Assembly: GCF_041248615.1 (NCBI RefSeq)
Contig: NZ_CP158426.1
Direction: 5' to 3' (one strand)
DNA: 64,000 nucleotides
From: Escherichia coli
GTDB lineage: Bacteria > Pseudomonadota > Gammaproteobacteria > Enterobacterales > Enterobacteriaceae
The notes below the pieces were generated by a model that was not told where the DNA came from, made no database searches, and saw nothing but the letters and a program-made list of their open reading frames with translations. Numbering within the stretch: the first letter of the stretch is position 1; every line of letters starts with the position of its first letter. Shown here piece by piece: positions 14,853 to 39,141 of the stretch. A program made the position numbers and the translations under genes.

Positions 14853-14929
14853 TGGCGTGGCATGCAGGATTCGAACCTGCGACCAACCGCTTAGAAGGCG
14901 GTTGCTCTGTCCGACTGAGCTAATGCCAC
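14853..14929 (-). tRNA. tRNA-Arg (anticodon UCU), phage-encoded
   Basis: 77 nt; reverse complement GTGGCATTAGCTCAGTCGGACAGAGCAACCGCCTTCTAAGCGGTTGGTCGCAGGTTCGAATCCTGCATGCCACGCCA; 7-bp acceptor stem, T-loop GGTTCGAATCC, anticodon loop CTTCTAA, encoded CCA; close to E. coli argU in layout. Confidence 0.85.
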
Positions 14930-23534: not shown

Positions 23535-23998
23535 TGATCGATGTTCAAATTATTCCCGCTACCGAAGAGCATCTTCAGATGATTTTGCCGGATGTTCGTC
23601 AGGCTGATATTGACGAACTGTATGCGGTATCGCTGATGACTACCGAAGATGCGCTGCGCGTTGGTCTTCGCACTGCGACTATGGCCTGGTCAGGGTTCGC
23701 GAACGGAGAACTGGTAACCATGTTTGGTGTATCTCCGGCGTCAATGATCGGTGGCAATGGTACGCCCTGGCTGGTAGGAACCAGCCGTATTGAAAAATAT
23801 CAGAAGACATTTCTGCGCCACTGCCGCCCTGTATTGCAGCAGATGCTGGCAGTTTATCCGCGCCTGGAAAACTACGTCGACGAGCGAAACCATGTTGCCA
23901 AAGCATGGCTGCACTGGCTTGGATTCAGGCTTGAAGAAGCCGCGCCTTATGGTGCTCTTGGTCTTAATTTCCACAGATTTCACATGGAGAGAAAATAA
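23534..23998 (+). CDS. Hypothetical virion protein
   Basis: 154 aa, overlapping start/stop with neighbours. Confidence 0.4.
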   Translation: MIDVQIIPATEEHLQMILPDVRQADIDELYAVSLMTTEDALRVGLRTATMAWSGFANGELVTMFGVSPASMIGGNGTPWLVGTSRIEKYQKTFLRHCRPVLQQMLAVYPRLENYVDERNHVAKAWLHWLGFRLEEAAPYGALGLNFHRFHMERK

Positions 23999-24543
23999 TG
24001 TGCGATCCGGTTATTGCTGGTGGCGCAATGCTCGCCATGAGTGGCATTCAGGCATACACCCAGTACCAACAGGGAAAGTATGCCTCGAAGGTTGCAGAAG
24101 CGAACGCAGATATAGCCACAGCTCAGGCAAATGATGCAATAAACAGAGGTAACGCTGAAGCTGAGCAACGGCGCAGAGAGACCCGGCAGCGGCTTGGTAC
24201 TCAAGCGGCGACAATGGGGGCGACCGGCGCCGATTTATCTACCGGTAACGCGCTGGATATATTTGGCGACACTGCCCAGTTTGGCGCTCTTGATTCGCTG
24301 ACGACGGTGAATAACGCGCAACGCGAGGCTTACGGTTATCAGGTTCAGGCTGCCAACTATAAAGCAGAAGCCAGTTCAGCCCGTAAACAGGGGAATGTGG
24401 GAGCAGCAACAACATTGCTCACTGCGCCTCTGAAGGCATACGGTGCGTACCAGATGTTTGGTGGGACGTGGAGTCCGTTTACTCAAAGCACTCCTGCGCC
24501 AATCGGGGCAGCAGCAGGAACCAGATTACCCGGAGGATTATAA
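23998..24543 (+). CDS. Putative internal virion protein (small, Ala/Gln-rich)
   Basis: 181 aa, N-terminal hydrophobic segment; position like T7 gp14. Confidence 0.45.
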   Translation: MCDPVIAGGAMLAMSGIQAYTQYQQGKYASKVAEANADIATAQANDAINRGNAEAEQRRRETRQRLGTQAATMGATGADLSTGNALDIFGDTAQFGALDSLTTVNNAQREAYGYQVQAANYKAEASSARKQGNVGAATTLLTAPLKAYGAYQMFGGTWSPFTQSTPAPIGAAAGTRLPGGL

Positions 24544-27056
24544 TGCCAGTCGTACCAACAGTATCCGGACGTCAGGTTGAGAGCCGTGGAGTTCAGTCAG
24601 CAGGCTTGCAGACGTTTTCTCAGCCAGGTATTGGTGATGCTTTTGTTCGGGCAGGGGCAGAGGCTATTGATGTTTTTGGTCAGGCAAAACAGCGTGCCAA
24701 TATCGCTCTGGCTCAGGAGGCATCTCTTAACCTCAGTCAGATAAGCAGCGATCTGCTGAATAACCCTGAAACAGGTTTGCTTAACCTGAAAGGGAAAAAT
24801 GCTATTGGAAAAGGTCAGGAGTATACGCAGCAGTTTGATGCTCGGGCCGAACAACTGGCTATGTCGCTGCCGGATGAACAGGCTCGTAATGCTTTCATGC
24901 AGCAGGCGCAGCAGCAGCGCATTCAGTTCACTACGCAGGCAGGGCGGCACGAGATAGGGCAAATAAATGCCTACGAAGAAGGCCAGTTTCAGGCTACGCT
25001 GCTGAACAATGGTAAAAATGCCGCAGCATTGTATGGCGACAACGCCGCATACGTATTGGCTAATAAGCAAACTTTCCAGCAAATTGAGGATTACGGCATT
25101 GCACATGGCTGGAGTGACGAGCAAATCCAGGCCAAGAAAATCGAGTTTAAAGAGAAGGTTGCTGATGCCGCATTGTCCCAGTGGTCGGCAAACAATGCGA
25201 CCGCATTCATCCAAAGTAATGGCGAGTTAAGTGATACTGCTGCTGGAGCTCGCCGTGCTGTAGCAGATAGTGACTCTTCCGAGCGTGCCCGTGGCATACG
25301 CAACAATAACCCAGGAAATCTCGAATACAGCAAAACTAATCCGTGGGTAGGCCAGACCGGTGATGATGGTCGATTTGCTAAATTCGAAACACCTGAACAC
25401 GGGATTCGTGCATTAGGGCGGAACCTGATGTCGTATCAGAGGCAGGGTATTGATACCGTCAGCGAGATAATTAATCGCTGGGCACCGCCTACTGATAAAA
25501 ATGACACTATGTCGTATATCAAAGCAGTGTGCGAACAACTTGGCGTTTCTGCTGATGAGCCTCTCGATGCATCTAATCCTGATACCCTGAAGGCGCTTTG
25601 TGCAGCCATTATCCATCATGAGAACGGTAGCCAGCCATACAGTGATCAGCAGTTAACTGCTGGTGTCAGTGCAGCACTTGGTTTATCAACAATTCCAACC
25701 AACACCAAACGCTATACCGGTAATGCAGCATTCGATGCGGCATCTCCTGAGGCGCAGGCAAGTTTTATGCGACAGGCGGATCAACTGCGTCGGCAGCAGC
25801 AGGCTGAATATAAAACGATGATTGACAGCCAGGTTCGCGATGCGACAGCTGCGTATATGCGTGGCGTTGAATTTCCTAACCCACCTGGTGAGGCTGATTT
25901 TATTGCAGCTTATGGAGTAAGAGAAGGAAACCTGCGATATACCGAGTTCAGAAATACGCAAATCGCCGGACAGTATATAGGCTCTTTCCGCAACATGCCG
26001 ACAAGCAGCATTACAGCATATGTTGAGCAATTACGCCCGGATACTGGTGAGACAGGGGAGGGTTATGCGGCACGAGCCGCTCTTTATGACAACGTTGTGT
26101 CGGCTGCAAGTCAGGTGATAAAGCAGCGACAGGCTGATCCTGTACAGTTCTCTCTTGCCGCCGGACAGGCAAAGCCTATCGACATGAGCAATAAGGATAA
26201 CTTTGGACAGAGCGTTGCCTTGCGTGCTGCTCAGGTCAGTGACCTTGCTAAGTCATATGGCACTCCACTGACGTTCTTTTCCAAAGACGAGGCCAATCAG
26301 ATCGGTGTTTTCTTTCGTGATGCGCCCGTTTCCCAACAGGCAGCATATCTCGATACCATCAGGCAGAGCACTGGTGGTGGGCAGGTGTATATGTCAGCAC
26401 TACAGCAGATCAGTGCCAACGCTCCATCTGCTGCCGTTGCCGGGATACTGATGGATAAGCCAGGTGGTATTTTGGCAGAAAAAAACTGGTTTAATCCGGA
26501 TGTTTCCGTGTCTCCTGAAACCGCTGCGCAGACAATTCTTGCTGGCGCGGCGGCTCGTAAAGGTACTGATGATGCGAAAGGTATTCCGATGCCTAAAGAT
26601 GCTGATCTTCGCCTTGAGTTTTCTGACATGGTGAAGGATGCATTTGCTGGTGACGCTCAGGGGGCATCAATGGCATACGAGATCGCAAAGGATTATTACG
26701 CTGGTGTGATGGCGAAAAAAGGCGTGGTATCAGGCGAAATTGACAATGATGTCTGGAAACAGGCTGTTAACGTAGCTACAGGTGGCGTGCATGACTATAA
26801 CGGAATGGGGAATGTCCTTTTGCCGTGGGGAATGTCTGCAGAGCAATTCGATAAGCAGGTTAATCAGGTTTGGAATGAACAAGTTGTCGGCTCCGGGATA
26901 AAAACACCGCCTGGTCAGTATGGTTTGCAAAGTTACGGCGATAGTCAGTATCTGGTGAAACTTGGTACTGGTTATCTGCTGAAAGATGATGGTTCTCCCG
27001 TTGTTCTTAATCTGACACAGAAGCGTCAGAGATTCTCCGGAGATATTCCGCAATGA
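24543..27056 (+). CDS. Large internal virion / ejection protein, possible cell-wall hydrolase region
   Basis: ATG 24543 overlaps upstream stop (track start 24468 rejected); conserved GIRNNNPGNLEY segment. Confidence 0.5.
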   Translation: MPVVPTVSGRQVESRGVQSAGLQTFSQPGIGDAFVRAGAEAIDVFGQAKQRANIALAQEASLNLSQISSDLLNNPETGLLNLKGKNAIGKGQEYTQQFDARAEQLAMSLPDEQARNAFMQQAQQQRIQFTTQAGRHEIGQINAYEEGQFQATLLNNGKNAAALYGDNAAYVLANKQTFQQIEDYGIAHGWSDEQIQAKKIEFKEKVADAALSQWSANNATAFIQSNGELSDTAAGARRAVADSDSSERARGIRNNNPGNLEYSKTNPWVGQTGDDGRFAKFETPEHGIRALGRNLMSYQRQGIDTVSEIINRWAPPTDKNDTMSYIKAVCEQLGVSADEPLDASNPDTLKALCAAIIHHENGSQPYSDQQLTAGVSAALGLSTIPTNTKRYTGNAAFDAASPEAQASFMRQADQLRRQQQAEYKTMIDSQVRDATAAYMRGVEFPNPPGEADFIAAYGVREGNLRYTEFRNTQIAGQYIGSFRNMPTSSITAYVEQLRPDTGETGEGYAARAALYDNVVSAASQVIKQRQADPVQFSLAAGQAKPIDMSNKDNFGQSVALRAAQVSDLAKSYGTPLTFFSKDEANQIGVFFRDAPVSQQAAYLDTIRQSTGGGQVYMSALQQISANAPSAAVAGILMDKPGGILAEKNWFNPDVSVSPETAAQTILAGAAARKGTDDAKGIPMPKDADLRLEFSDMVKDAFAGDAQGASMAYEIAKDYYAGVMAKKGVVSGEIDNDVWKQAVNVATGGVHDYNGMGNVLLPWGMSAEQFDKQVNQVWNEQVVGSGIKTPPGQYGLQSYGDSQYLVKLGTGYLLKDDGSPVVLNLTQKRQRFSGDIPQ

Positions 27057-28855
27057 GTTACTTTGGCCTTAATCCAGTAAACCAGAATCAGCAGCTTGAC
27101 GAAGCAGCATCAAATCCAGCTGGCTTTAACAGCGATGTTGGTTTTTTCGACAATGCTGTAGGAGCGGCATTGTCTGGTTTGTACTCCGGGCTGGTGGCAA
27201 AGCCAGATCAGTTGCTATGGGCAGGGATGGATAAAATCGTATCCCCGATTGCTCAGTTTGTTAACGAAAACACCTCGCTCAATGACACTTCAGTTTCATA
27301 CATTGCTGAGCAGAGAAAACTAGCAGAGCAGCAGGTTAAGCGGCTGACGCCTGATGCCGCGACAACCGGAACCGCCGGGCAGGTTCTTTATGGGTTGTTC
27401 GATATGGGCGGGCAGGCTGTTGTCGGTACAACGCTCGGTGGTCCTGTCGGAGGTGCAGCGGCGGTAACTTCGCTACAGGGTTTTTCTGAGTTTGAACGGC
27501 TGACAGCACAGGGTGTTGATTTCAGGACGGCGAAGGAAGCGGGATTAGTGCAGGGCATTACTGCTGGTGCCGGAACACTGATCCCTATGAGCCTCGGGTT
27601 ACGTGCTGGTGGTGCGCTGGCGGAAGGTGTGGCGGCTCAGCTTGCGCGGACGGGTGAAAGTTCAGTGCGACGCGCCGCAGCAACAGCAGTACGTGCAACG
27701 CCAGATATTGCCTATGCCGCAGGTACAAATATTGCGTTCGGTATGGCACAGCGTGGGCTTACTGCAAAAACGCTTCGTGATGGTGGCTATAGCGAAATGG
27801 CTAACCAGTATGATGTGTTGGATCGACAGGCAATTGCTATTGATGCTGTTCTTGGGGTGGCGTTTGGTGGTGTCGGCAGATTTATTAACTCTCGCGGCGA
27901 GTCTACAAGCGCACCAAATTTTTCACCAGTTGATATTGATGCTGCACTGGCGGCGAATGCCGCTCATCATGCTGAAATTGATATTGCTCCCGGCGTTCCG
28001 ATCAACGTGCTTTCGCGTAATTCGCACATTCAGGCTCTGCGAAAAGCCATGTCTGATGTTAGCCAGGGGAGACCTGTAGACGTTGCCAGCATTGTTGAGT
28101 CTGCATCTTTCAGTGAAATTCCTGGGCCCAAGAGTCTGCTGTCTCAGGCAGTTAATGAGGCTCTGTCATCTGTAGATGATGGAGTAACGGCGCGCGCTAT
28201 AGAAAATCGGTTGCTTGAAGAACAGGCCGCGCAGCTTTTGTCGCGTGGCGATAGACAGGTTTACCAGTCTGAAATCGCTAATAGCCAACGAATTATTGAA
28301 AATCTCACTGAACAGCGCGCACAAATTCTTGCAGAAGAGCCAACCGGGAGCGGTAAGGCTTTATCTCGTGCTCGATCAGATAAACAGGCCAGACTTCGCG
28401 ATATTGATCAACGAATCCGGCAGGCACAAGAACGCCTGGAATTTTCCCGTAACGCGTTGGCACCGCACGAGCCTGGCGGTCAGTTTTTTGAAGCTCGAGC
28501 AGAACTGGCACGACGACAGCAGGCAGAAAGTGAACTTAATGCTCAGGCTGTTTCATTCTATAAAACAGCAGAGGTCAGGACGCCAGACGAAGTAGCTCCT
28601 TTTGAGCCCGGTAAGATATTGCAACAGACAGAACAAAAAATGATGGCAGATCCGGCAGGAGATATTGATCTGCGTATAGCTGAAGACTCGCTGCTTGAAT
28701 CTCCGGACATGATAATCACCGTGCTGGATGATGATGGTAATCCACAATCGCGCAGTGCGCGTGAAGTACTGGATGAAGCGAACAGGGAAAGTGAGCAGGC
28801 AATACAGGATTCCAGCCTGTTTGATGTCGCTGTGGCGTGTTTCTTGAGAGGTTAA
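27053..28855 (+). CDS. Internal virion / ejection protein
   Basis: 600 aa, Ala/Gly-rich, overlapping upstream stop. Confidence 0.5.
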   Translation: MSYFGLNPVNQNQQLDEAASNPAGFNSDVGFFDNAVGAALSGLYSGLVAKPDQLLWAGMDKIVSPIAQFVNENTSLNDTSVSYIAEQRKLAEQQVKRLTPDAATTGTAGQVLYGLFDMGGQAVVGTTLGGPVGGAAAVTSLQGFSEFERLTAQGVDFRTAKEAGLVQGITAGAGTLIPMSLGLRAGGALAEGVAAQLARTGESSVRRAAATAVRATPDIAYAAGTNIAFGMAQRGLTAKTLRDGGYSEMANQYDVLDRQAIAIDAVLGVAFGGVGRFINSRGESTSAPNFSPVDIDAALAANAAHHAEIDIAPGVPINVLSRNSHIQALRKAMSDVSQGRPVDVASIVESASFSEIPGPKSLLSQAVNEALSSVDDGVTARAIENRLLEEQAAQLLSRGDRQVYQSEIANSQRIIENLTEQRAQILAEEPTGSGKALSRARSDKQARLRDIDQRIRQAQERLEFSRNALAPHEPGGQFFEARAELARRQQAESELNAQAVSFYKTAEVRTPDEVAPFEPGKILQQTEQKMMADPAGDIDLRIAEDSLLESPDMIITVLDDDGNPQSRSAREVLDEANRESEQAIQDSSLFDVAVACFLRG

Positions 28856-28860
28856 ATTAA

Positions 28861-31335
28861 ATGAGACAGGAATGTATACAAGCGGTCCAGCAGGCGGCGC
28901 AGCGCACGTTAACGGCGCGAGAAATACAGAACATTGAAGACCGCATTTATCGAAATATGCGCTCCATTGCTCGTGATGACCCGATGTCGTGGAGACAACT
29001 TTCCGAATCAGAGCGGCTATATCGTGCAGCACAATTGGCATCTGAGGAATTACAGCGAGAAGCGGCATTAAAGAAACGTCGTGTGGCCCTCACTATAGCC
29101 GCACGTCAGAGATTGGATAAATTTATCAATAGCTATCAAGGGGCTGATGGGAAACTTGGCGCTCTTAACCGTACTATTGCTTTTAATGCAGACGGTAAAT
29201 CGAATTTCCTCTCTGTTGAGTCCAGAACAAAAGCCACTCGTGATTATGCATTGAGTCAATTGCAGGAGGCATTCGAAGCAGTTGATCCTCGCTTTTTTGG
29301 TCTGTTTGAAGATGAAGCGGGCGTACGTGACCTGGTATATGAAATGCGAGGGCAAAATACTGGCAATTCTAAAGCAAGAAAAGGTGCTAAGGCGTGGAGA
29401 GAAGTGACAGATCTACTGCGCCGCCGGTTTAATGATGCTGGTGGGGACATTGGCTATCTCGAAAACTGGGGGATCCCTCAGCATCATTCTATGGAAAAGG
29501 TTGGGGCGGTATCAAAGGATAAGTGGGTTAGCGATGTTATAGGTAAGCTGGATCGCAAATATTATATCCGAGCCGATGGACAACTGATGAACGATGCCGA
29601 GTTGTCTGCATTTCTTGGAGAGGCTTATAACACGATCGCTACTGGTGGGCTGAATAAGCTTACTGATACCGGAATGCGAATTTCCGGCGCACGTGCTAAC
29701 CGTGGTAATGCATCACGACAGATACATTTCAAAGATGCAGATTCCTATCTGCAATATCAGCAACTTTATGGCGATCGCTCTCTATGGGAAATCATGGTCG
29801 GTCACCTGGAAGGTATCAGTAAAGATATTGCACTGGTGGAAACATATGGCCCAAACCCCGATCATGTTTTCCGCTCTCTTCTTGATCAGGTGAAGGCAGA
29901 AACGGCAACAGCTAACCCGAGTAAAACCGGTAAAGTCGAGCGGCTGGCGAACAACACAGAGAATCTGTACAACTTTATTTCCGGAAAGACACAGCCTGTA
30001 GCGAATCCGCACATCGCGCGATGGTCTGACAATATCCGCAACTGGCTGGTTGCCAGCAGACTCGGATCTGCGTTGCTATCATCGTTCTCTGATCTTGGAA
30101 CCATGTATCTGTCTGCGAAGGTGACCAACCTTCCAATGAACCAGTTATTCCGCAACCAGCTTGAAGCTATGGACCCAACGAACCGTACAGAACTTGCGCG
30201 GGCGCGCCGCGCTGGTCTGGCGATGGAATCTCTACTTGGCAGCGTTAACCGCTGGGCGATGGATAATATGGGGCCGTCAGTGTCTCGTTGGGCGGCAACG
30301 GCGGTAATGCGTGCCAGTGGGCTTACAGCATGGTCAGATGCGCACAAGCGCGCCTATGGCGTAACCATGATGGGAAGCCTGGGAGAAGTAGTGTCACGGA
30401 CACCAGACCTTCGTAGCCTCGATGATTCTGATTTTCGTATCCTGAAAAGCAAAGGGATTACTGACACAGACTGGAGCGTATGGAAGCTGGCGCAACAGGA
30501 GGACTGGGGGAACGGTAATAATACGATGCTGACACCGGAAAGCATTATGCGTATCCCTGATTCAGCAGTTAAACATCTTGGTGAGCCTGAGCGCGTGAAA
30601 TTTGAGGCAATGCGTAAATTGCTAGGTGCCGTAACTGAAGAAGTTGATATGGCTGTTATTACACCGGGAGCTCGTGAGCAACTGATAACCGGTTCTGGTA
30701 TTCAGCGTGGAACATGGAAAGGTGAATTAACGAGAAGTGTTTTCCTGTTTAAATCTTTCCCTATCTCGGTTGTTATGCGTCACTGGTCACGCGCTATGGG
30801 TATGCCGTCTGCTGGTGGGCGTGCGGCATATATTGCGACGTTTATTGCCAGTACGACCATTCTTGGCGCTTTGTCGCAGCAACTTAACGACCTTGCGTCT
30901 GGTCGTAATCCTCGAGAGATGACAGGAGAAGATGCCGCAAAATTCTGGCTTGGTGCTCTACTGAAAGGTGGTGGTCTTGGCCTTTACGGTGACTTTTTAT
31001 TGTCAGATCACACCAGGTACGGAAGCGGCGCGCTGGCGTCGATGCTTGGCCCGGTAGCTGGTCTGGTTGATGACGTGGTGAAGATTGCTCAGGGCATACC
31101 GTTAAATGCTGTGGAAGGGAAGAGTGAGCAGACTGGTGGTGATCTGGTGAAGCTGGGGAAAGGTTTGATGCCTGGTGCGAATCTCTGGTATTTGAAGGCG
31201 GCTCTCGATCACATGATCTTTAACCAGATGCAGGAGTATTTTTCACCAGGCTATTTGCGTAAAATGGAGCAACGTTCGAAGAAAGAGTTTAACCAGACAT
31301 ACTGGTGGCGACCTCAGGATGTCACTCCGCAATAA
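28861..31335 (+). CDS. Large internal virion / ejection protein
   Basis: 824 aa, third of three consecutive large genes before tailspike. Confidence 0.5.
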   Translation: MRQECIQAVQQAAQRTLTAREIQNIEDRIYRNMRSIARDDPMSWRQLSESERLYRAAQLASEELQREAALKKRRVALTIAARQRLDKFINSYQGADGKLGALNRTIAFNADGKSNFLSVESRTKATRDYALSQLQEAFEAVDPRFFGLFEDEAGVRDLVYEMRGQNTGNSKARKGAKAWREVTDLLRRRFNDAGGDIGYLENWGIPQHHSMEKVGAVSKDKWVSDVIGKLDRKYYIRADGQLMNDAELSAFLGEAYNTIATGGLNKLTDTGMRISGARANRGNASRQIHFKDADSYLQYQQLYGDRSLWEIMVGHLEGISKDIALVETYGPNPDHVFRSLLDQVKAETATANPSKTGKVERLANNTENLYNFISGKTQPVANPHIARWSDNIRNWLVASRLGSALLSSFSDLGTMYLSAKVTNLPMNQLFRNQLEAMDPTNRTELARARRAGLAMESLLGSVNRWAMDNMGPSVSRWAATAVMRASGLTAWSDAHKRAYGVTMMGSLGEVVSRTPDLRSLDDSDFRILKSKGITDTDWSVWKLAQQEDWGNGNNTMLTPESIMRIPDSAVKHLGEPERVKFEAMRKLLGAVTEEVDMAVITPGAREQLITGSGIQRGTWKGELTRSVFLFKSFPISVVMRHWSRAMGMPSAGGRAAYIATFIASTTILGALSQQLNDLASGRNPREMTGEDAAKFWLGALLKGGGLGLYGDFLLSDHTRYGSGALASMLGPVAGLVDDVVKIAQGIPLNAVEGKSEQTGGDLVKLGKGLMPGANLWYLKAALDHMIFNQMQEYFSPGYLRKMEQRSKKEFNQTYWWRPQDVTPQ

Positions 31336-31344
31336 GGAAGTGTT

Positions 31345-31518
31345 GTGTTTTTAATTATTTTGAGTGTAATAATTTCTGGTGGATTGTTATTTATTGACCA
31401 CTACAAATATTTTCTTAACCCTCAGACTCAAGCTATTTGCTGGTTCATCTTTGTTGTGCAGGGAGTAGTTCTTGTTGCAAGCCTTATTGAGGGGAGGCCT
31501 CTTATTTTTACTGGGTAA
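31345..31518 (+). CDS. Possible small hydrophobic protein (57 aa)
   Basis: GTG 31345 with SD AAGGA 5 nt upstream; hydrophobic translation; below track threshold. Confidence 0.3.
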   Translation: MFLIILSVIISGGLLFIDHYKYFLNPQTQAICWFIFVVQGVVLVASLIEGRPLIFTG

Positions 31519-31530
31519 ATAGGTGACTAC

Positions 31531-31827
31531 ATGCAAGCTATAGGATTCATTGTTTATATCGTCGTTGGTCTTTTTCAGTTGGCAGCAATTATGGCTGGGC
31601 TTGAATCATGGTGGGGATTGCACTGGATAATTGCAGCCCCCATCGCTTTCATCGTGAGCTATATTCCATTTGTTGGAGCGATTGTTGGTATGGTTGGCGC
31701 TGTGGATGTATGGCGGTGGGAGTGGTGGCAGGCTGGCCTTCTATTCTTTGGTGGGATAATCTTTGCTATTGTCTGCGGTGGAATGTCATCATTTTTCGAA
31801 TGGCTATCATTCAGAAAAGAGACGTGA
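31531..31827 (+). CDS. Small integral membrane protein (3 predicted TM helices)
   Basis: 98 aa, highly hydrophobic; stop TGA lies inside GTGACATGTCAC. Confidence 0.5.
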   Translation: MQAIGFIVYIVVGLFQLAAIMAGLESWWGLHWIIAAPIAFIVSYIPFVGAIVGMVGAVDVWRWEWWQAGLLFFGGIIFAIVCGGMSSFFEWLSFRKET

Positions 31828-31835
31828 CATGTCAC
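31824..31835. repeat. 12-bp palindrome GTGACATGTCAC (copy 3 of 3)
   Basis: Exact; overlaps stop codon of membrane protein gene; terminator hairpin starts at next base. Confidence 0.9.
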
Positions 31836-31860
31836 AGGCCGCTTTCGCGGCCTTGTTTTT
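31836..31860 (+). terminator. Rho-independent terminator
   Basis: Stem AGGCCGC/GCGGCCT, loop TTTC, followed by TGTTTTT. Confidence 0.7.
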
Positions 31861-32020
31861 AACGAATGCCACCGCCGCCCGGGCGGGAATCCGCAGAACG
31901 CCCACCGCAGCGGGAGCCGTCAGCGGCAGTATCGCTGTCGTGCTGACAACGGCCGGCAAAGGCCTGAGTTGAAGCTACCAGAGACAACAAAACGAACAGT
32001 GCAGCAAATGCTTTTTTCAT
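31859..32020 (-). CDS. Possible small secreted protein (signal peptide), start at internal Met
   Basis: MKKAFAALFVLLSLVASTQAFA signal-like N-terminus; weak RBS. Confidence 0.3.
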   Translation of the reverse strand: MKKAFAALFVLLSLVASTQAFAGRCQHDSDTAADGSRCGGRSADSRPGGGGIR

Positions 32021-32094: not shown

Positions 32095-32117
32095 AAAAAA
32101 GCCCGCAGCGCGGGCTT
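32095..32117 (-). terminator. Rho-independent terminator of AT-rich moron gene
   Basis: Stem GCCCGC/GCGGGC with A6 on plus strand; overlaps stop codon. Confidence 0.65.
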
Positions 32118-32655
32118 ACCAAAACTTGTACCACGGGGATTTATCCTTCAATGGACAATCCTTCCATCGTGTGGCCAACCATTCATATTCTTTAAAATAT
32201 GTGTTTATGTTTTCTTTTTCTCTAATGGCTTGTATAAGAGGTAGCGCAATCTGATAGTTATTTACAACGGAGCTGTAAAATACTTCCTTAATCATGGTCT
32301 CATCATAAGTTTTCCGCTTCACGCTCACAGCCATGCGTTCGTAGAAACCTAGACAGTAAATTATTTCTCTCTTCTCTGTCTTTTCTTCATCCGTAAGATC
32401 AGCCTGCCCATTGCTTGGATACATATAAGAGCGGAATGATTTGTTCGATTCGTGAATGCGGCGCATAGTAGATAGGCCTTTCTTATAATCTACATCAAAC
32501 CTGCTTTCACCAAGGAATACTGAAGTGTGTACTTTTCTCGCTGTATTTACATTATAAATAATAGTAGCGATAGCTATGAACAAGCCAAGCGAAACCGCGA
32601 CTGCACTTACGATTTGAGCCACAGCCATGGCAAATTGCATTTCTTCACTTAACAC
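32116..32655 (-). CDS. AT-rich moron: membrane-anchored protein (N-terminal TM helix plus ~140-aa cytoplasmic domain); candidate superinfection-exclusion / abortive-infection factor
   Basis: 179 aa; GC visibly lower than flanking phage DNA; own GTG start with GGAGA SD, own terminator; lies in a position analogous to P22 sieA (between ejection genes and ant). Confidence 0.55.
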   Translation of the reverse strand: MLSEEMQFAMAVAQIVSAVAVSLGLFIAIATIIYNVNTARKVHTSVFLGESRFDVDYKKGLSTMRRIHESNKSFRSYMYPSNGQADLTDEEKTEKREIIYCLGFYERMAVSVKRKTYDETMIKEVFYSSVVNNYQIALPLIQAIREKENINTYFKEYEWLATRWKDCPLKDKSPWYKFW

Positions 32656-32865: not shown

Positions 32866-33576
32866 TCAGAAGAACCCTGCCTTGTCGTTGATGTATTCCG
32901 CGTGAGTCTGGATATCACGCAGGCATTTGCTCACACCGACGATGTAGCAAAACATGGTGGTCAGCTCCGCCGCCGCGCCCGATACGTCGTGCCCGTCGTC
33001 CTGTAACTGGTTCAGCAGATTCATCAGCAGTGAGTTCTCCGTCAGGCCGAGAACACCAGACGGAGAATGAATCAGACTGCGGTAGCCGGGCTTCAGTGGG
33101 GCGCTGTAGGTTTTGTTCTCTATCTTCATTGCCTGCATCACTGCTGATGCTGTGGCGTTGGCTACCTGGTCGGCAACCATCTTTATGCGTTCTTCCTGCG
33201 GGAGCGAGTTTTTAATGTAACTTCCGGTGCGGCGGATCTGAGGAAGAACCTCACCTGTAACCCATTTACGAAAGCGGTAGGGGATAGTGCCTGGTGTCAC
33301 CGCATCGCGGCAGCGGAGGATCAGTGTGTAGAGGCCTGACTCGGAGATGATGTTGATCTCTTTTACTCGGCTGTCAAAAATCGCACGATGTTCATGCCCT
33401 ATGTTGAACATAGACCTTTCATCATCATCCAGTTTTTCAAGTGATTGGGTGACGTTTTGGATACGCAGCGCACTACAAACGTCTTGGGCTACAAACCATG
33501 GTTGGCCATCGATAATGATGGAACGGATAGGGTTAACAGATTCAAATTTGAAGATGGCAGTTTGAGCATTAGCCAT
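32866..33576 (-). CDS. Antirepressor (Bro-N domain plus C-terminal Ant-type domain)
   Basis: N-terminus FKFESVNPIRSIIIDGQPWFVAQDVCSAL...ISESGLYTLILR...VLPQIRRTGSY is a Bro-N signature; ATG 33576 has GGAG SD (track GTG start 33591 rejected). Confidence 0.7.
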   Translation of the reverse strand: MANAQTAIFKFESVNPIRSIIIDGQPWFVAQDVCSALRIQNVTQSLEKLDDDERSMFNIGHEHRAIFDSRVKEINIISESGLYTLILRCRDAVTPGTIPYRFRKWVTGEVLPQIRRTGSYIKNSLPQEERIKMVADQVANATASAVMQAMKIENKTYSAPLKPGYRSLIHSPSGVLGLTENSLLMNLLNQLQDDGHDVSGAAAELTTMFCYIVGVSKCLRDIQTHAEYINDKAGFF

Positions 33577-33594
33577 GGTGGTTATCTCCACTTA

Positions 33595-33608: not shown

Positions 33609-33731
33609 CACCGCAACGCCAATTACTGGTGGTGAACTGGACAAGGTTGGCGTACCGGCCTAAGTGGTACCGGCGTCCTTTCGGACCCCTGCCCAGCCCA
33701 CCATAATTCGGATATAGCTGTGCTTAACGCA

Positions 33732-33755
33732 TAAAAAAACCACGTCTGGCGTGGT
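33732..33755 (-). terminator. Rho-independent terminator downstream of small antirepressor-domain gene
   Basis: Stem ACCACG/CGTGGT with A7 run on plus strand. Confidence 0.6.
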
Positions 33756-33845
33756 ATGCGCCACTTAGTAACTCGGGACGCCAATCCCGGCACTGGATTT
33801 TGCCAGTGCCAGATTACTATGGCACAAGAGGAGTGCGATGTAAAT

Positions 33846-34344: not shown

Positions 34345-36927
34345 ATGACGGTCTCAACCGAAGTTGACCACAACGAATACACCGGTAACGGAGTTACGAC
34401 ATCGTTTCCGTATACTTTCCGCATTTTCAAAAAATCCGACCTGGTTGTTCAGGTGTCTGACCTGAACGGGAACGTAACAGAATTGGTTCTGGATACCGGT
34501 TATACAGTAACTGGAGCTGGCACTTATAGTGGCGGTTCTGTGGTTCTTCCGTCTCCGCTTGCTACTGGATGGAGAATTACGATAGATCGTGTGCTTGATG
34601 TAGTACAGGAGACAGATCTTCGCAATCAGGGAAAGTTTTTTCCCGAAGTGCATGAAGATGCCTTTGACTACCTGACGATGCTGATCCAGCAATGTTTTGG
34701 GTGGTTCAGACGTGCATTGATGAAACCATCTTTGCTTGCAAAATATTACGATGCAAAGCAAAACAGAATTTCTAACCTTGCAGATCCATCACTTGAGCAG
34801 GACGCTGTAAATAATCGCTCAATGCGTAATTATGTCGATGCTGCAATCGCCGGAGTTGTTGGTGGTTTTGGTTGGTTTATTCAGTATGGTTCTGGGGCAG
34901 TATACAGAACGTTCCAGGATAAGATGCGTGACGTTTATAATGTTAAAGATTATGGGGCGAAAGGTGACAATATTAACGATGATACGCTAGCATTTATTGC
35001 AGCAGCAAATGCTCTCGGAGAGGGCGGAAAGTTATATATTCCAACAGGAACATACAATTTAACTGGTCCAGTTAATATACCACCAGTGAATATGTGCGGC
35101 GATGGGCAGGGTGAAACAGTTATTGTGTTTGACAATACCACATCACCAAAAGACGGCTTTGTTTTCGCTGCGCCAACTAAATATGATATTGAATTTGGTT
35201 TAAGTCACCTTACAGTTAAAAGAAAAGGCGGGAATGGAGCTAATGCTATATATACCCCAAGAGGTGTCGGGCTTAACCATCTAAGACCAAAACCAACATT
35301 TAGATTTTTATCTTTCTGTTCTGAAACTGCAAATATTGATTCTGATGAATTCGCTCAGAAATACGGCTGGGAATGGTCTTTTAACTGTGGTGATAGTTGG
35401 CAGTTCACAATCGAACGCATTGATGCTGTTGGATGTTATCAGATAGCCAAAAGTTATAATGAACAGTTCCTTGATGGATTCATTCGCACCGCTCCAGAAG
35501 AGGGGATTTTATCAATGCGTGTGAGTGATATCACAACGCATAATGTTGCAAATTTTTTTGAAATTAAGCAGAAGACATATTTTACATTGCTTAATATTGA
35601 TGCCGCCAAGGCATTACGAGGCATTTACGACGCTGATGATCGTATATTTGAAACGAATCGTTATGCTTATGGTGAATGTATATGCACAAATGTTGGTATT
35701 AATGCCCAACTTGAACCAGTACGGCTGGATAACAGATTCCTGCTCATCATGAATGGTATGTTTATTCACCGCGCAGCAAAAGGTTACGATCATGGTCTGG
35801 AATGGGTTGGTCTTAAGCTTAGTCGTGCTCGCGTGTGTTCATTCCAGGGAATTGAGATCGGCACTGCCAGAGGGTATTCAGGGACTAAGAAAGGGATTGT
35901 TCTTGACGCCGGTGATGCAAATAACTTTACCAATGTAACTTTTGGTTTGCTTGATGTGTGCGCACAGATTGGCGATTCCAATTCACAGTATGGTGCCAAC
36001 TTTGCAACATGCTTTAATAATGTGAGCATTAATGCTGACACCGTATTGTTATTCGATTTGCAGCTATGCAGAAATTTCCATTGTGATGGATACGGAGCAT
36101 CTTCTGCCTACACTCTTCAGCAATTCCATAGGAACAGTGATGACACAAGCAATACTTATACATTTAGTAATGTAGGTAAACACAATCTCTACACTGACAA
36201 CTCGCTGTACCTACATAATTCTGCTTCGCTGGAGAACGGGAAGAATATACGTATTGATACACGAAACGGATTATCTGTTAGCACTCAAGCAGATACTGGT
36301 TCCGCAGGAAATAACTTCCTTATAATTCGTAGGACTGGTGTTGATATAGACAGTTTTGAGTTAAGGACTCGCAGTACAGCAGGTGCATATACATATATTA
36401 ATACACCTGAAACTCATTTTTCTGGCCTTATAAAACCAACTGTTGATAATGTTAACTCAAACGGAACATCAGCATTTCGATGGTCACAGGTATACGCTGG
36501 TACTGGCAGTATCAACACGTCGAATGAAGAGCTGAAATTGCGTATTGAGGCTGACGAGAAAACAACAGAATCAGAGCGTCTTGCTGCGCTTGAAATAAAG
36601 GAAAATATCTGGAGGTTTAAATTTAAAGATGCAGTAAAGATCAAGAGTGATGGCGCTCGGATTCATTTCGGTGTTGGTGCACAAACTGTAGGTAATATTC
36701 TCAGAAAATACGGTCTTGACCCTAATAACTATGCGTTCTGGTGTTATGATGAATGGGATGATATTTATGCTCCAGAAGTATTGATTAGGAGTGTTAAAAA
36801 CAATGAAACAGGAGAGTGGTACGACGAGGAATATTACACAGGAAGGCAGATTATTATTAAACCTGCTGGCTATCAGTATGGTATCAGATACGAGGAACTT
36901 CTGATGTTTATTCTTATGTTTATTTAA
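34345..36927 (+). CDS. Tailspike / tail fibre protein with conserved N-terminal attachment domain and AT-rich exchangeable distal part
   Basis: 860 aa; N-terminal ~190 aa at phage-typical GC, remainder AT-rich; Gly/Asn-rich beta-helix-like repeats; C-terminal segment possibly a chaperone-like domain. Confidence 0.7.
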   Translation: MTVSTEVDHNEYTGNGVTTSFPYTFRIFKKSDLVVQVSDLNGNVTELVLDTGYTVTGAGTYSGGSVVLPSPLATGWRITIDRVLDVVQETDLRNQGKFFPEVHEDAFDYLTMLIQQCFGWFRRALMKPSLLAKYYDAKQNRISNLADPSLEQDAVNNRSMRNYVDAAIAGVVGGFGWFIQYGSGAVYRTFQDKMRDVYNVKDYGAKGDNINDDTLAFIAAANALGEGGKLYIPTGTYNLTGPVNIPPVNMCGDGQGETVIVFDNTTSPKDGFVFAAPTKYDIEFGLSHLTVKRKGGNGANAIYTPRGVGLNHLRPKPTFRFLSFCSETANIDSDEFAQKYGWEWSFNCGDSWQFTIERIDAVGCYQIAKSYNEQFLDGFIRTAPEEGILSMRVSDITTHNVANFFEIKQKTYFTLLNIDAAKALRGIYDADDRIFETNRYAYGECICTNVGINAQLEPVRLDNRFLLIMNGMFIHRAAKGYDHGLEWVGLKLSRARVCSFQGIEIGTARGYSGTKKGIVLDAGDANNFTNVTFGLLDVCAQIGDSNSQYGANFATCFNNVSINADTVLLFDLQLCRNFHCDGYGASSAYTLQQFHRNSDDTSNTYTFSNVGKHNLYTDNSLYLHNSASLENGKNIRIDTRNGLSVSTQADTGSAGNNFLIIRRTGVDIDSFELRTRSTAGAYTYINTPETHFSGLIKPTVDNVNSNGTSAFRWSQVYAGTGSINTSNEELKLRIEADEKTTESERLAALEIKENIWRFKFKDAVKIKSDGARIHFGVGAQTVGNILRKYGLDPNNYAFWCYDEWDDIYAPEVLIRSVKNNETGEWYDEEYYTGRQIIIKPAGYQYGIRYEELLMFILMFI

Positions 36928-37343: not shown

Positions 37344-37745
37344 ATGTCATTTCAATTAACAGGAGAGTCAATAAATCAATGGCTTAGCCTTGGTTCTCTA
37401 GCAGCGGTGATAGCAGGAGTGCCTCCAGAAGTAGCTCTTGGGTCTTTGTCAGGAGCGGTAATTTTTGTTACCTCTGCTGTAGAGTATCCTGTTCGTCGTC
37501 GTGTACTCTTGTCGATACTCAGCTTTCTTTGTGGTCTTCTCTTTTACAAACCAACTGCATCAATTCTTATAGGCATAGCCAGTCTAATTCCTACCATTAC
37601 TCAGGACTCTTTCGAGAAAGGGATTGTTTTCTCTGCTGGCGCATTTGTGTCAGCAATAGTCGCAGTGCGAATTGGCATCTGGCTCTATCACCATTCCGAT
37701 AATCCACGCGAGTTAATTCCTGGGAGAAAAGACGATGGTAACTAA
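37344..37745 (+). CDS. Putative holin (multi-TM membrane protein)
   Basis: 133 aa, several hydrophobic helices, first gene of lysis cassette. Confidence 0.5.
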   Translation: MSFQLTGESINQWLSLGSLAAVIAGVPPEVALGSLSGAVIFVTSAVEYPVRRRVLLSILSFLCGLLFYKPTASILIGIASLIPTITQDSFEKGIVFSAGAFVSAIVAVRIGIWLYHHSDNPRELIPGRKDDGN

Positions 37746-38043
37746 TGAGCTTGTTTTGCTTATCACCAATGCAGTTATTTGTACTGGCATAGCAATTCGC
37801 GTTGTCACATTCCGGCGTAACGGCTCTCAACACCGAAGGTTGGGAGGCTGGCTTGCTTATTTCCTGATTGTTGCTGCAGCTAGTATTCCTGTTCGTGTCG
37901 TCTATGCAATCTGGTTACGTACGCCAATGGCTGTGGATTTATCTGAGGTCATTATCAACGCTGTCATGCTTGCAGCGGTTATTAAAACGCGCGGTAACGT
38001 CGTGCAGATTTTTAAAATAACGAGGTCTAAACATGGAGATTAA
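37735..38043 (+). CDS. Putative second holin / antiholin
   Basis: 102 aa, three hydrophobic segments, charged C-terminus. Confidence 0.45.
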
Positions 38044-38662
38044 ACAATTCCAGCGAGCTGCTGGTATTAGCGAGGCGCTGGCCGCACGCTGGTTCTCGCA
38101 TATAACTTCTGCGATGAAAGAGTTTGGTATCAGCAAAACCGAAGATCAGGCAATGTTTATTGCTCAGGTCGGGCATGAGTCTGGTGGTTTCACCAGGTTG
38201 CAGGAGAATTTCAACTACAGTGTCAGCGGTCTAGCTAACTTCGTTCGGGCTGGGCGTCTCACTCAGGGGCAGGCTAATGCACTTGGTCGCCGTGCTGGTG
38301 AACCACCATTGCCACTTGAGCGCCAGCGCGCGATCGCAAATCTGGTATACAGCAAACGCATGGGTAACAATGCTCCCGGCGATGGCTGGAATTACCGTGG
38401 GCGCGGGCTTATCCAGATTACCGGTTTGAATAACTATCGTGACTGCGGAAACGGCCTAAAAGTGGACCTGCTGGAGAATCCTGAGCTGTTGACGCAGGGC
38501 GAATACGCGGCTCGTAGCGCGGCGTGGTTCTTCTCCAGCAAAGGCTGCATGAAGTATACCGGCGATATTGCACGTGTAACTTTGATTATCAATGGTGGCA
38601 GGAACGGCATCGACGACCGGAGAGCGCGGTACATCACTGCCAGTAAGGTGCTGGCGGTATGA
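38033..38662 (+). CDS. Endolysin, glycoside hydrolase family 19-like
   Basis: 209 aa; motifs GHESGGF and [15 protein letters not shown]. Confidence 0.75.
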
Positions 38663-39141
38663 TCTGGGCATTCGTAAAAGCATACTGGAAACAGTTGCTT
38701 ATCGTGGCGGTGCTTGCTGTTCTGGTCATATCAGGAGTTGTTGCCTGGAATGTACACGGTAGCCGTCAGTACGACGCCGGGTATGCACAGGCGAAGGAAG
38801 ACCGCAAAGCTGAAGATGAGAGAGTTCGTCAGCACTACGAACAGGAGAAAGCGACCAATGAACGTGAAGCTCAGCAGAGGATCGACCAGGCGCGCAATGA
38901 TGCTCTTGATGCTGCCGCTCGCGCTGGCCGGTTGCAGCAACAACTCTTTGCCATCCGTGAGCAGCTCAGGCAGTATAACGCCATTGTCGGCGCTGGGACA
39001 TCAGCCGCAGACACCGGAGTTTTGCTTGCCGACGTGCTCAGCAAATCTCTCGAGAGAAACAGACAACTGGCAGAGTATGCTGACCGGGCAGCCGAAGCCG
39101 GAAGAGTCTGCGAAAAACAGTACGACACTCTGACCAGATAG
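38659..39141 (+). CDS. Rz-like i-spanin
   Basis: 160 aa, N-terminal TM helix then coiled-coil; contains embedded +1-frame lipoprotein gene. Confidence 0.65.
38858..39133 (+). CDS. Rz1-like o-spanin lipoprotein embedded in Rz
   Basis: Alternate frame inside Rz; ATG 38858 with AGGAG upstream; signal peptide with lipobox LALAGC. Confidence 0.5.
   Translation: MNVKLSRGSTRRAMMLLMLPLALAGCSNNSLPSVSSSGSITPLSALGHQPQTPEFCLPTCSANLSRETDNWQSMLTGQPKPEESAKNSTTL

Follow-up and report, generated by a model that had tools for sequence, protein, structure and literature searches.

What are the two small hydrophobic genes that stand directly behind the last ejection gene of an Escherichia coli prophage, and what might their products do? 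The question is raised by positions 31,345 to 31,827 of a 64,000-nucleotide stretch of contig NZ_CP158426.1 (hereafter the window, to whose numbering all coordinates refer), the sequence of which is identical to the chromosome of E. coli NRZ14408 (NZ_LT599825.1, window position 31200 being record position 1471200). A first-pass annotation had described a 57-amino-acid (aa) open reading frame (ORF) and a 98-aa protein with three transmembrane (TM) segments, here called p57 and p98, and had suggested that they might be membrane-acting exclusion factors, a pinholin-like pair or ejection accessory proteins. Its reading of the anatomy holds, in that both ORFs exist, are hydrophobic, are appended to the ejection operon and lie far from the lysis genes, whereas the comparison with related prophages does not support a pair, gives no evidence of a pinholin and makes an ejection accessory unlikely. 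p57 and p98 are independent, horizontally shuffled genes for hydrophobic helical proteins that are dispensable for this type of phage. They occupy a two-position slot, its junction fixed by the stop of the preceding gene, in which at least eight alternative envelope-directed genes were found, and they are probably accessory cargo for the cell envelope, with a role neither in the virion nor in lysis.

Two genes behind the gp17 stop

The prophage is about 39 kb long (window ~1 to 39141), belongs to the epsilon15/phiV10 type (genus Uetakevirus) and ends with an integrase on one side and an Rz-like gene beside yfgI on the other, the nearest phage records being HEMP4 and phiv142-3. The gene in front of p57 is the homologue of epsilon15 gp17 and of phiV10p20, with which the phiV10p20 annotation agrees. 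Epsilon15 gp17 is assigned as a homologue of IVP-D, the internal virion protein D of T7 (PMC4819975), and the earlier label "last internal virion gene" is therefore right. p57 and p98 are placed between the end of this gene and the tailspike gene, in the following order.

28861..31335, plus strand: gp17-like last internal-virion/ejection gene, 824 aa (PHROG 684 "virion structural protein", E = 0)
31333-31335, plus strand: stop codon TAA of gp17
31333..31344, plus strand: junction, in which the gp17 stop TAA overlaps the Shine-Dalgarno sequence AAGGAAG (31334-31340)
31345..31518, plus strand: p57, predicted 57-aa two-helix hairpin membrane miniprotein, slot position 1, with a GTG start and the stop codon TAA at 31516-31518
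31521..31526, plus strand: Shine-Dalgarno sequence AGGTGA of p98, 4 nt ahead of the ATG, by direct sequence reading
31531..31827, plus strand: p98, predicted 98-aa inner-membrane protein with three segments, slot position 2, with an ATG start (PHROG 3075)
31836..31853: intrinsic terminator closing the late operon, a 7-pair stem (6 GC) followed by a T-run

p57 starts 9 nt behind gp17 and p98 12 nt behind p57. There is no terminator between these three genes, and one stands directly after p98, so that the two small genes are indeed appended to the ejection-protein operon. The terminator has a folding energy of -14.3 kcal/mol (z = -2.2), and terminators are annotated at the equivalent position in phiV10 and epsilon15. 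By this anatomy, p57 and p98 are part of the late-operon transcription unit, and the simplest reading is that they would be co-transcribed with the late ejection genes up to the terminator at 31836. A terminator-like hairpin in the 3' end of p57 (31488-31504) was considered as an attenuator and rejected, its stability being no better than that of shuffled sequence.

The larger gene, p98, is annotated by RefSeq as WP_080030025.1 and matches PHROG 3075 (unknown function) over 98/98 positions with an E value of 1.4e-54. The ratio of nonsynonymous to synonymous substitution rates (dN/dS) is 0.03, and 78 of the 109 variable sites fall on codon position 3, a pattern that marks p98 as a real protein-coding gene under very strong constraint. 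Two other ways of reading the same DNA were discarded. An 84-aa ORF in an alternative frame (31608..31862) contains variable sites that follow the codon positions of p98, and a 118-aa form of p98, as in Orf12 of phiv142-3, is closed in the window by an in-frame TAA five codons upstream of the ATG at 31531. In the GenBank record of phiv142-3 (locus L001, 6273-6629), the 118-aa Orf12 begins at an upstream in-frame start that overlaps p57, which is itself left unannotated; since the TAA closes this extension in the window, the long form is probably a mis-annotation.

The p98 protein has a grand average of hydropathy (GRAVY) of 1.21, and its AlphaFold2 model, with a predicted local distance difference test (pLDDT) score of 91.3, places helices at residues 2-28, 32-42, 46-59 and 65-97. 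These helices make up three predicted membrane-length segments, as had been read from the sequence before, the middle one being broken at the conserved Pro46. The positive charges are found solely in the 5-residue C-terminal tail. In a family alignment of 50 sequences, the residues kept in at least 90% (Q16, A19, P46, G49, G53, G56, A57, W61, W63, and F72) form a helix face of small residues, which is followed by a tryptophan-rich interfacial loop.

A word-indexed search with p98 found 52 clusters, which come from Enterobacterales only and are each labelled "hypothetical", while an exhaustive hidden Markov model search, with clustering at 50% identity, gave 749 or more clusters, of which 320 have E <= 1e-10. 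The family that emerges from these searches is large and has neither a curated description nor a Pfam entry, and searches of Pfam, NCBIfam and PADLOC with p98 yielded nothing above threshold. PHROG 3075 holds phage copies only, in contrast to this wider family, which includes fusions and tandem repeats. Its members are mostly stand-alone proteins of ~100 aa, although some are fused to DUF805 (three family members), RDD, MORN or extra membrane segments, and one member holds tandem copies of the domain with 4 matched stretches. The fusion partners are only uncharacterised membrane modules and therefore give no functional clue. Distant relatives adjoin integrases or resolvases, often with genes for DUF805 or DUF6804 membrane proteins next to them, and look like genes of mobile elements. 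A recurrent cluster of genes for small membrane proteins was observed with the family in Mesorhizobium (L100), a soil metagenome (L101) and a seawater metagenome (L109), where the p98-family gene is followed by DUF805 and/or DUF6804 genes; in the Mesorhizobium locus, the cluster adjoins integrase and resolvase genes.

The smaller gene, p57, starts with a GTG behind the Shine-Dalgarno sequence AAGGAAG, as had been described. A 57-codon ORF taken alone is not beyond chance, many such ORFs being present in the window, and it is because of the comparative data, not because of ORF length, that both ORFs are considered real genes. The p57 survey covered the 80 p98-bearing loci from a scan of IMG/VR together with genome records. 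The gene is intact in 68 of 69 copies, which encode 23 protein variants, and starts with GTG in 48 and with TTG in 21 of these copies, each time behind a purine-rich Shine-Dalgarno sequence that is retained in three differing upstream sequence contexts. Five lineages with 65-77% protein identity were compared (E. coli, two Klebsiella-type lineages, Salmonella Muenchen, and Citrobacter), and the p57 frame is the sole stop-free frame of six across all of them. The ratio of nonsynonymous to synonymous polymorphism (pN/pS) is 0.26-0.38 in 9 of the 10 lineage pairs, with Fisher p values from 1e-6 to 3e-3, the exception being the closely related pair L067/L078 (0.68, p = 0.4). The median dN/dS over 162 pairs is 0.24, and at the protein level p57 evolves ~8x faster than p98. 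Together, these data mark p57 as a real protein-coding gene. It is unannotated by RefSeq and its Prokaryotic Genome Annotation Pipeline (PGAP) in this genome and called in strain EFF60 as WP_248422619.1.

The p57 protein has a GRAVY of 1.33 and two hydrophobic stretches joined by the motif D(H/R)YKYFLxP. Since its positive charges are in this loop, a hairpin with a cytoplasmic loop is likely. The family is narrow, consisting of 13 clusters at 90% identity with lengths of 56-58 aa, all from Enterobacteriaceae, and a 54-aa relative that is 38% identical to p57 occurs in the same position. Searches of Pfam, NCBIfam and PADLOC with p57 gave no match above threshold, and the PHROG match is sub-threshold only.

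A swappable slot for envelope cargo

The close relatives that we compared share a gp17 C-terminus that is 90-100% identical, and they differ in what follows it. The segment CAATAAGG, made up of the gp17 stop and the first part of the Shine-Dalgarno sequence, is shared by 7/7 aligned lineages, and divergence begins right after it, irrespective of the cargo. In phiV10 and strain AH19K002, the slot holds one 46-aa protein with two TM segments and nothing further; the phiV10 gene, phiV10p21 (L002, 6146-6286), stands in the position of p57, is coupled to the gp17 stop and is followed by a terminator. Epsilon15 has gp18 in the first position (64 aa, two TM segments; L105, 5327-5521), with an annotated terminator after it. 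p57 is only 14-18% identical to phiV10p21 and epsilon15 gp18, which also have no detectable similarity to each other. In APEC-O117H42, the slot is filled by a gene for a 137-aa lipoprotein whose lipobox is ISAC, and in APEC O1 by a frameshifted ORF of the 54-aa type followed by a 126-aa lipoprotein with an LVGC lipobox. In the APEC O1 locus (L005, 1646-1810), the N-terminal half of the 54-aa-type gene and its C-terminal half (AAWFGFVVFG...) lie in different frames, which suggests decay of a cargo gene or a sequencing error.

The two positions also vary independently of each other. The genes found ahead of p98 are p57, its 54-aa relative, a gene for a 103-aa protein with two TM segments, and genes for secreted proteins of 102/123 aa and of 175 aa. 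Prophages of Cronobacter and Salmonella have a p98 homologue without any first gene, starting 2-36 nt past the last ejection gene, while in prophages of Salmonella Muenchen and Citrobacter freundii a p57 homologue is followed by a 126-aa lipoprotein and not by p98. The view of p57 and p98 as a pair thus gives way: p98 can do without a first gene or follow any of five unrelated ones, p57 is also found without p98 in front of a lipoprotein, and an obligate two-component system is excluded by this independent occurrence. p98 is also uncoupled from the gp17 allele: at locus L041, the p98 shows 100% identity over 96 aligned residues, while the gp17 in front of it shows only 28%. All alternative cargo is targeted to the envelope by TM hairpins, signal peptides or lipoboxes, and scans of these genes against Pfam, NCBIfam and PADLOC gave nothing above threshold. 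Given this variety of first and second genes, the site can be described as a slot that offers two positions to envelope-targeted cargo.

Among 5426 complete E. coli genomes, the gp17 3' end is found in 319, some part of the p57/p98 cassette in 215, and at least 80% of the cassette in 204. Among 50,697 phage records, p98 is present in 7 and p57 in 6, all being E. coli or Klebsiella phages, and the carrier records examined (phiv142-3 and HEMP4) are of the Uetakevirus type. The cassette is absent from phiV10, epsilon15 and TL-2011b. The guanine-plus-cytosine (GC) content is 0.395-0.43 over 31200-31699 and 0.40-0.43 across the cassette, compared with mostly 0.45-0.61 in gp17, and this lower value fits a horizontal acquisition. 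The slot at the gp17 stop may be used as a natural catalogue of candidate envelope-acting phage proteins for screening.

Possible interference with incoming phages and competing explanations

Our best guess for the function, which we put forward tentatively, is interference at the inner membrane with the DNA delivery of incoming phages. Judged from the context only, an exclusion factor would be the most plausible of the three suggestions made in the first-pass annotation; we infer both the time of expression and the exclusion activity of p57 and p98. According to the proposed mechanism, they would be two independent accessory genes in a slot that lies at the 3' end of the ejection operon and is swapped by recombination, reached by transcription that reads through from the ejection genes and stops at 31836. 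p57 would be translated from the Shine-Dalgarno sequence overlapping the gp17 stop, and p98, 12 nt past p57, from its own. Both products would be inserted into the cytoplasmic membrane of the producing cell. There p98, which is probably an oligomer formed via a Gly-zipper helix and a Trp belt, would interfere with the DNA-delivery conduit of incoming related podophages at the inner membrane, along the lines of P22 SieA, HK97 gp15 or T4 Imm, and p57, a hairpin miniprotein in its own right, would have the same task or a similar one at the level of the envelope.

Several results weigh against this proposal. No sigma-70-like promoter was found in 30800-31345 on the plus strand, and the Cronobacter and Salmonella p98 homologues gave no upstream promoter match either. 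A candidate promoter at 31240-31266 (TTTTCA-15 nt-TAAAAT) was rejected, as its spacer is off consensus and its -10 hexamer unconserved, the TAAAAT at 31261 being CAAGAT, TAAGAT or CAAGGT in other lineages. Expression in the prophage state, as is usual for SieA and HK97 gp15, thus finds no support, although a weak or non-canonical promoter may be active in the lysogen. Of the features by which Juhala and Hendrix recognise a moron (PMC3594210), patchy presence, a deviant GC content and an own terminator were found here, while an own promoter was not found in the interval given above. P22 SieA has no sequence relationship to p98 (hhalign probability 0.2%), and it differs in being a 164-aa protein encoded on the opposite strand from its own promoter, whereas p57 and p98 point in the same direction as the late operon. 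The PADLOC scan gave no defence family for p57 or p98 at E <= 0.1, a Pfam scan at E <= 1 that covered T4 Imm and curated exclusion families gave a sub-threshold holin match only, and fold searches of PDB and BFVD gave no significant match. The experimental paper on the carrier prophage phiv142-3 reports nothing for orf12, which corresponds to p98. Finally, p98 homologues that are only 52-61% identical keep their place right after three very different ejection genes, and this retention hints at some link with the expression of late or ejection genes, beyond simple exclusion. Together with the missing promoter, it leaves room for a function tied to late expression.

There is also a more far-reaching version of the exclusion proposal. 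The p98 family, with its three segments, Gly-zipper and Trp belt, would then represent a class of anti-phage or exclusion effectors of the inner membrane that is new and is carried on mobile elements. In epsilon15-like podophages, p98 and a range of unrelated envelope proteins would make the slot a late-expressed "envelope cargo array" wired to the gp17 stop, protecting the producing cell or its progeny and not the lysogen. We consider this version doubtful.

If either protein does block DNA entry, it would be a new exclusion determinant, unrelated in sequence to those known, for epsilon15/phiV10-type phages. About 6% of complete E. coli genomes carry a prophage of this type, and several phages of the group are in use or under consideration for typing and biocontrol of O157 and Salmonella, so that resident prophages could limit the host range of such phages. 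The p98 gene would also offer a first handle on a widespread family of membrane proteins that has no Pfam entry.

A different target for envelope cargo would be the host itself, p57 and p98 modulating host inner-membrane proteins during takeover or conversion by inhibiting or redirecting an enzyme or a transporter. Epsilon15, which is of the same genus, is annotated to encode a 66-aa "alpha polymerase inhibitor" with two TM segments that acts on the O-antigen alpha-polymerase, and the genus thus uses hairpin miniproteins against host membrane enzymes. The uniformly envelope-directed cargo of the slot fits such a role as well, and so do the generic membrane modules DUF805, RDD and DUF6804 to which the p98 domain is fused or adjacent in bacteria. 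p57, however, has no sequence similarity to the epsilon15 inhibitor, from which it differs in length and motifs, and the prophage has no O-antigen polymerase or modification gene beside the tailspike, nor can a target be named. We regard a host-modulating role, the main rival to exclusion, as rather unlikely.

The tight coupling to gp17 might instead be taken to mean that p57 and p98 are helpers of ejection or assembly, which protect the inner membrane of the producing cell from the phage's own ejection proteins or organise these proteins before packaging. The Shine-Dalgarno sequence that overlaps the gp17 stop, the small ORF with two TM segments found after gp17 in epsilon15 (gp18), in phiV10 and here, and the p98 homologues that, in three divergent lineages of phages, begin 2-36 nt behind the final ejection gene are in line with this idea. 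The ORFs in the first position are nevertheless not detectably homologous to one another, p57 having 14-18% identity to phiV10p21 and epsilon15 gp18, and relatives have secreted proteins or lipoproteins in their place. p98 is absent from viable phages and is found in identical form with a 28%-identical gp17. A virion protein would be conserved with the ejection module, whereas p57 and p98 are patchy in relatives and uncoupled from the gp17 allele. The earlier suggestion of ejection accessory or virion proteins is thus an unlikely one, given that phiV10 and epsilon15 do without these genes. To our knowledge, polytopic membrane proteins are not known as cargo of tailed-phage capsids.

A part in the timing of lysis, as holin, antiholin or pinholin-like proteins, we consider very doubtful. 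p98 resembles class I holins such as lambda S in being small, in having three hydrophobic segments and in its positive C-terminus, and since its positive charges are confined to the C-terminal tail, the N-out/C-in topology of lambda S is possible. Among the p98-family members, 4 of 29 weakly match Phage_holin_5_2 (E = 0.027), although the score of 15.2 bits is well below the Pfam gathering cut-off of 29.2, and no holin match reaches the threshold. The tail of p98 comprises no more than 5 residues and the dual-start motif is absent. Unlike class I holin genes, p98 lies outside the lysis cassette and is dispensable in relatives. The cassette is 5.5 kb away, which agrees with the separation noted before, and its genes already include two of the holin family as well as those for an endolysin and a spanin. 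The p98 homologues are always beside the ejection gene despite two unrelated lysis cassettes, and relatives without p57 and p98 keep the same lysis genes; a lysis role is unlikely for these reasons, and the pinholin-like pair of the first-pass annotation is likewise unsupported.

That p57 is an unexpressed conserved leader or spacer and only p98 a gene is scarcely tenable. In favour of this view, the starts of p57 are always GTG or TTG and never ATG, PGAP leaves it out in most genomes and the distribution of its variable sites over the three codon positions, 15/15/24, has only a mild codon-like bias, but the conserved open frame, the low pN/pS values, the Shine-Dalgarno sequence retained in three contexts and the 54-aa homologue in the same place all speak for a translated gene.

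Neighbouring genes and known systems

The features that surround the slot are the remaining genes of the ejection set, the tailspike gene and the lysis cassette, together with a group of genes and RNAs on the minus strand between p98 and the tailspike gene.

23998..24543: T7 gp14-family core protein, ejection set
24543..27056: PHROG 992 head/transglycosylase-type protein, ejection set
27053..28855: PHROG 1145 protein, ejection set
31859-32020, minus strand: 53-aa signal-peptide protein (PHROG 14503 "moron, membrane associated protein")
32116-32655, minus strand: DUF4760 gene, 179 aa, with an N-terminal TM segment and its own terminator (32117-32099)
32866..33591, minus strand: BRO-N antirepressor-like gene
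33625..33708, minus strand: C4 antisense RNA (Rfam, 66 bits, above the gathering score)
33733..33809, minus strand: isrK (Rfam, 67 bits, above the gathering score)
34345..36927: tailspike gene
37344-39141: lysis cassette with two holin-like genes, GH19 endolysin and Rz, 5.5 kb downstream of p98

The 53-aa gene is convergent with p98 and shares its terminator, which lies just beyond the stop codons of both genes; PGAP names the product "transmembrane anchored protein" in some genomes. A 901-nt query found 561 of the 5426 E. coli genomes, in most of which the region of the 53-aa gene is matched, making it far commoner than the p57/p98 cassette. The DUF4760 gene marks a second position with varying cargo, this one on the opposite strand, which is taken in relatives by a YafO-family toxin, by a HicA toxin with a DUF1902 partner, or by other hypothetical proteins. 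The RNA matches lie directly upstream of the BRO-N gene, and the c4 a1/b1 target motif of Rfam is also found in 33625-33822 on the minus strand. The interval 33625-33822 and the BRO-N gene form a P1/P7-type c4-antirepressor (immI-like) module, located as immI is in P22. Elsewhere in the prophage, a tRNA-Arg is annotated on the minus strand between the terminase and portal genes (14853-14929).

This arrangement invites a comparison with P22, in which sieA is found between the final ejection gene and that for the tailspike, and SieA blocks the ejection-protein conduit at the inner membrane (PMC10461980). Like SieA, p57 and p98 are predicted inner-membrane proteins of a temperate podophage, are encoded between the last ejection gene and the tailspike gene beside an antirepressor (immI-like) module, and occur in some of the related phages only (PMC10461980). 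In P22, the interval from gene 16 to gene 9 holds sieA, mnt, arc, sar and ant. The motif FnRYPnEAnnFNK of SieA types A-C is absent from p57 and p98, in addition to the differences given above.

HK97 gp15 is a small inner-membrane exclusion protein that is encoded inside the late operon and has bacterial (non-phage) homologues (PMC3594210). This YebO-like moron and p57/p98 are alike in being small and hydrophobic, in their place in a late structural operon, in their deviant GC content, in the terminator and in having homologues outside phages. They differ in that the moron-defining own promoter was not found for p57/p98, and since the Pfam scan gave no match above threshold, families of the YebO type are not matched either.

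The closest counterparts of p57 are epsilon15 gp18 and phiV10p21, which share its position, the coupling to the gp17 stop, the hairpin architecture and the terminator that follows, and which differ from it in sequence and in their assignment to PHROGs 29212 and 7892. As gp18, phiV10p21 and p57 are all without a known function, this comparison names a class and not a mechanism. What the present analysis adds is the two-position envelope-cargo slot fixed at the gp17 stop and the placing of p98 in a large uncurated family. Set beside these known systems, the p57/p98 slot does not amount to a novel type of system but to a well-ordered case of phage cargo genes, and the current understanding of such genes stands.

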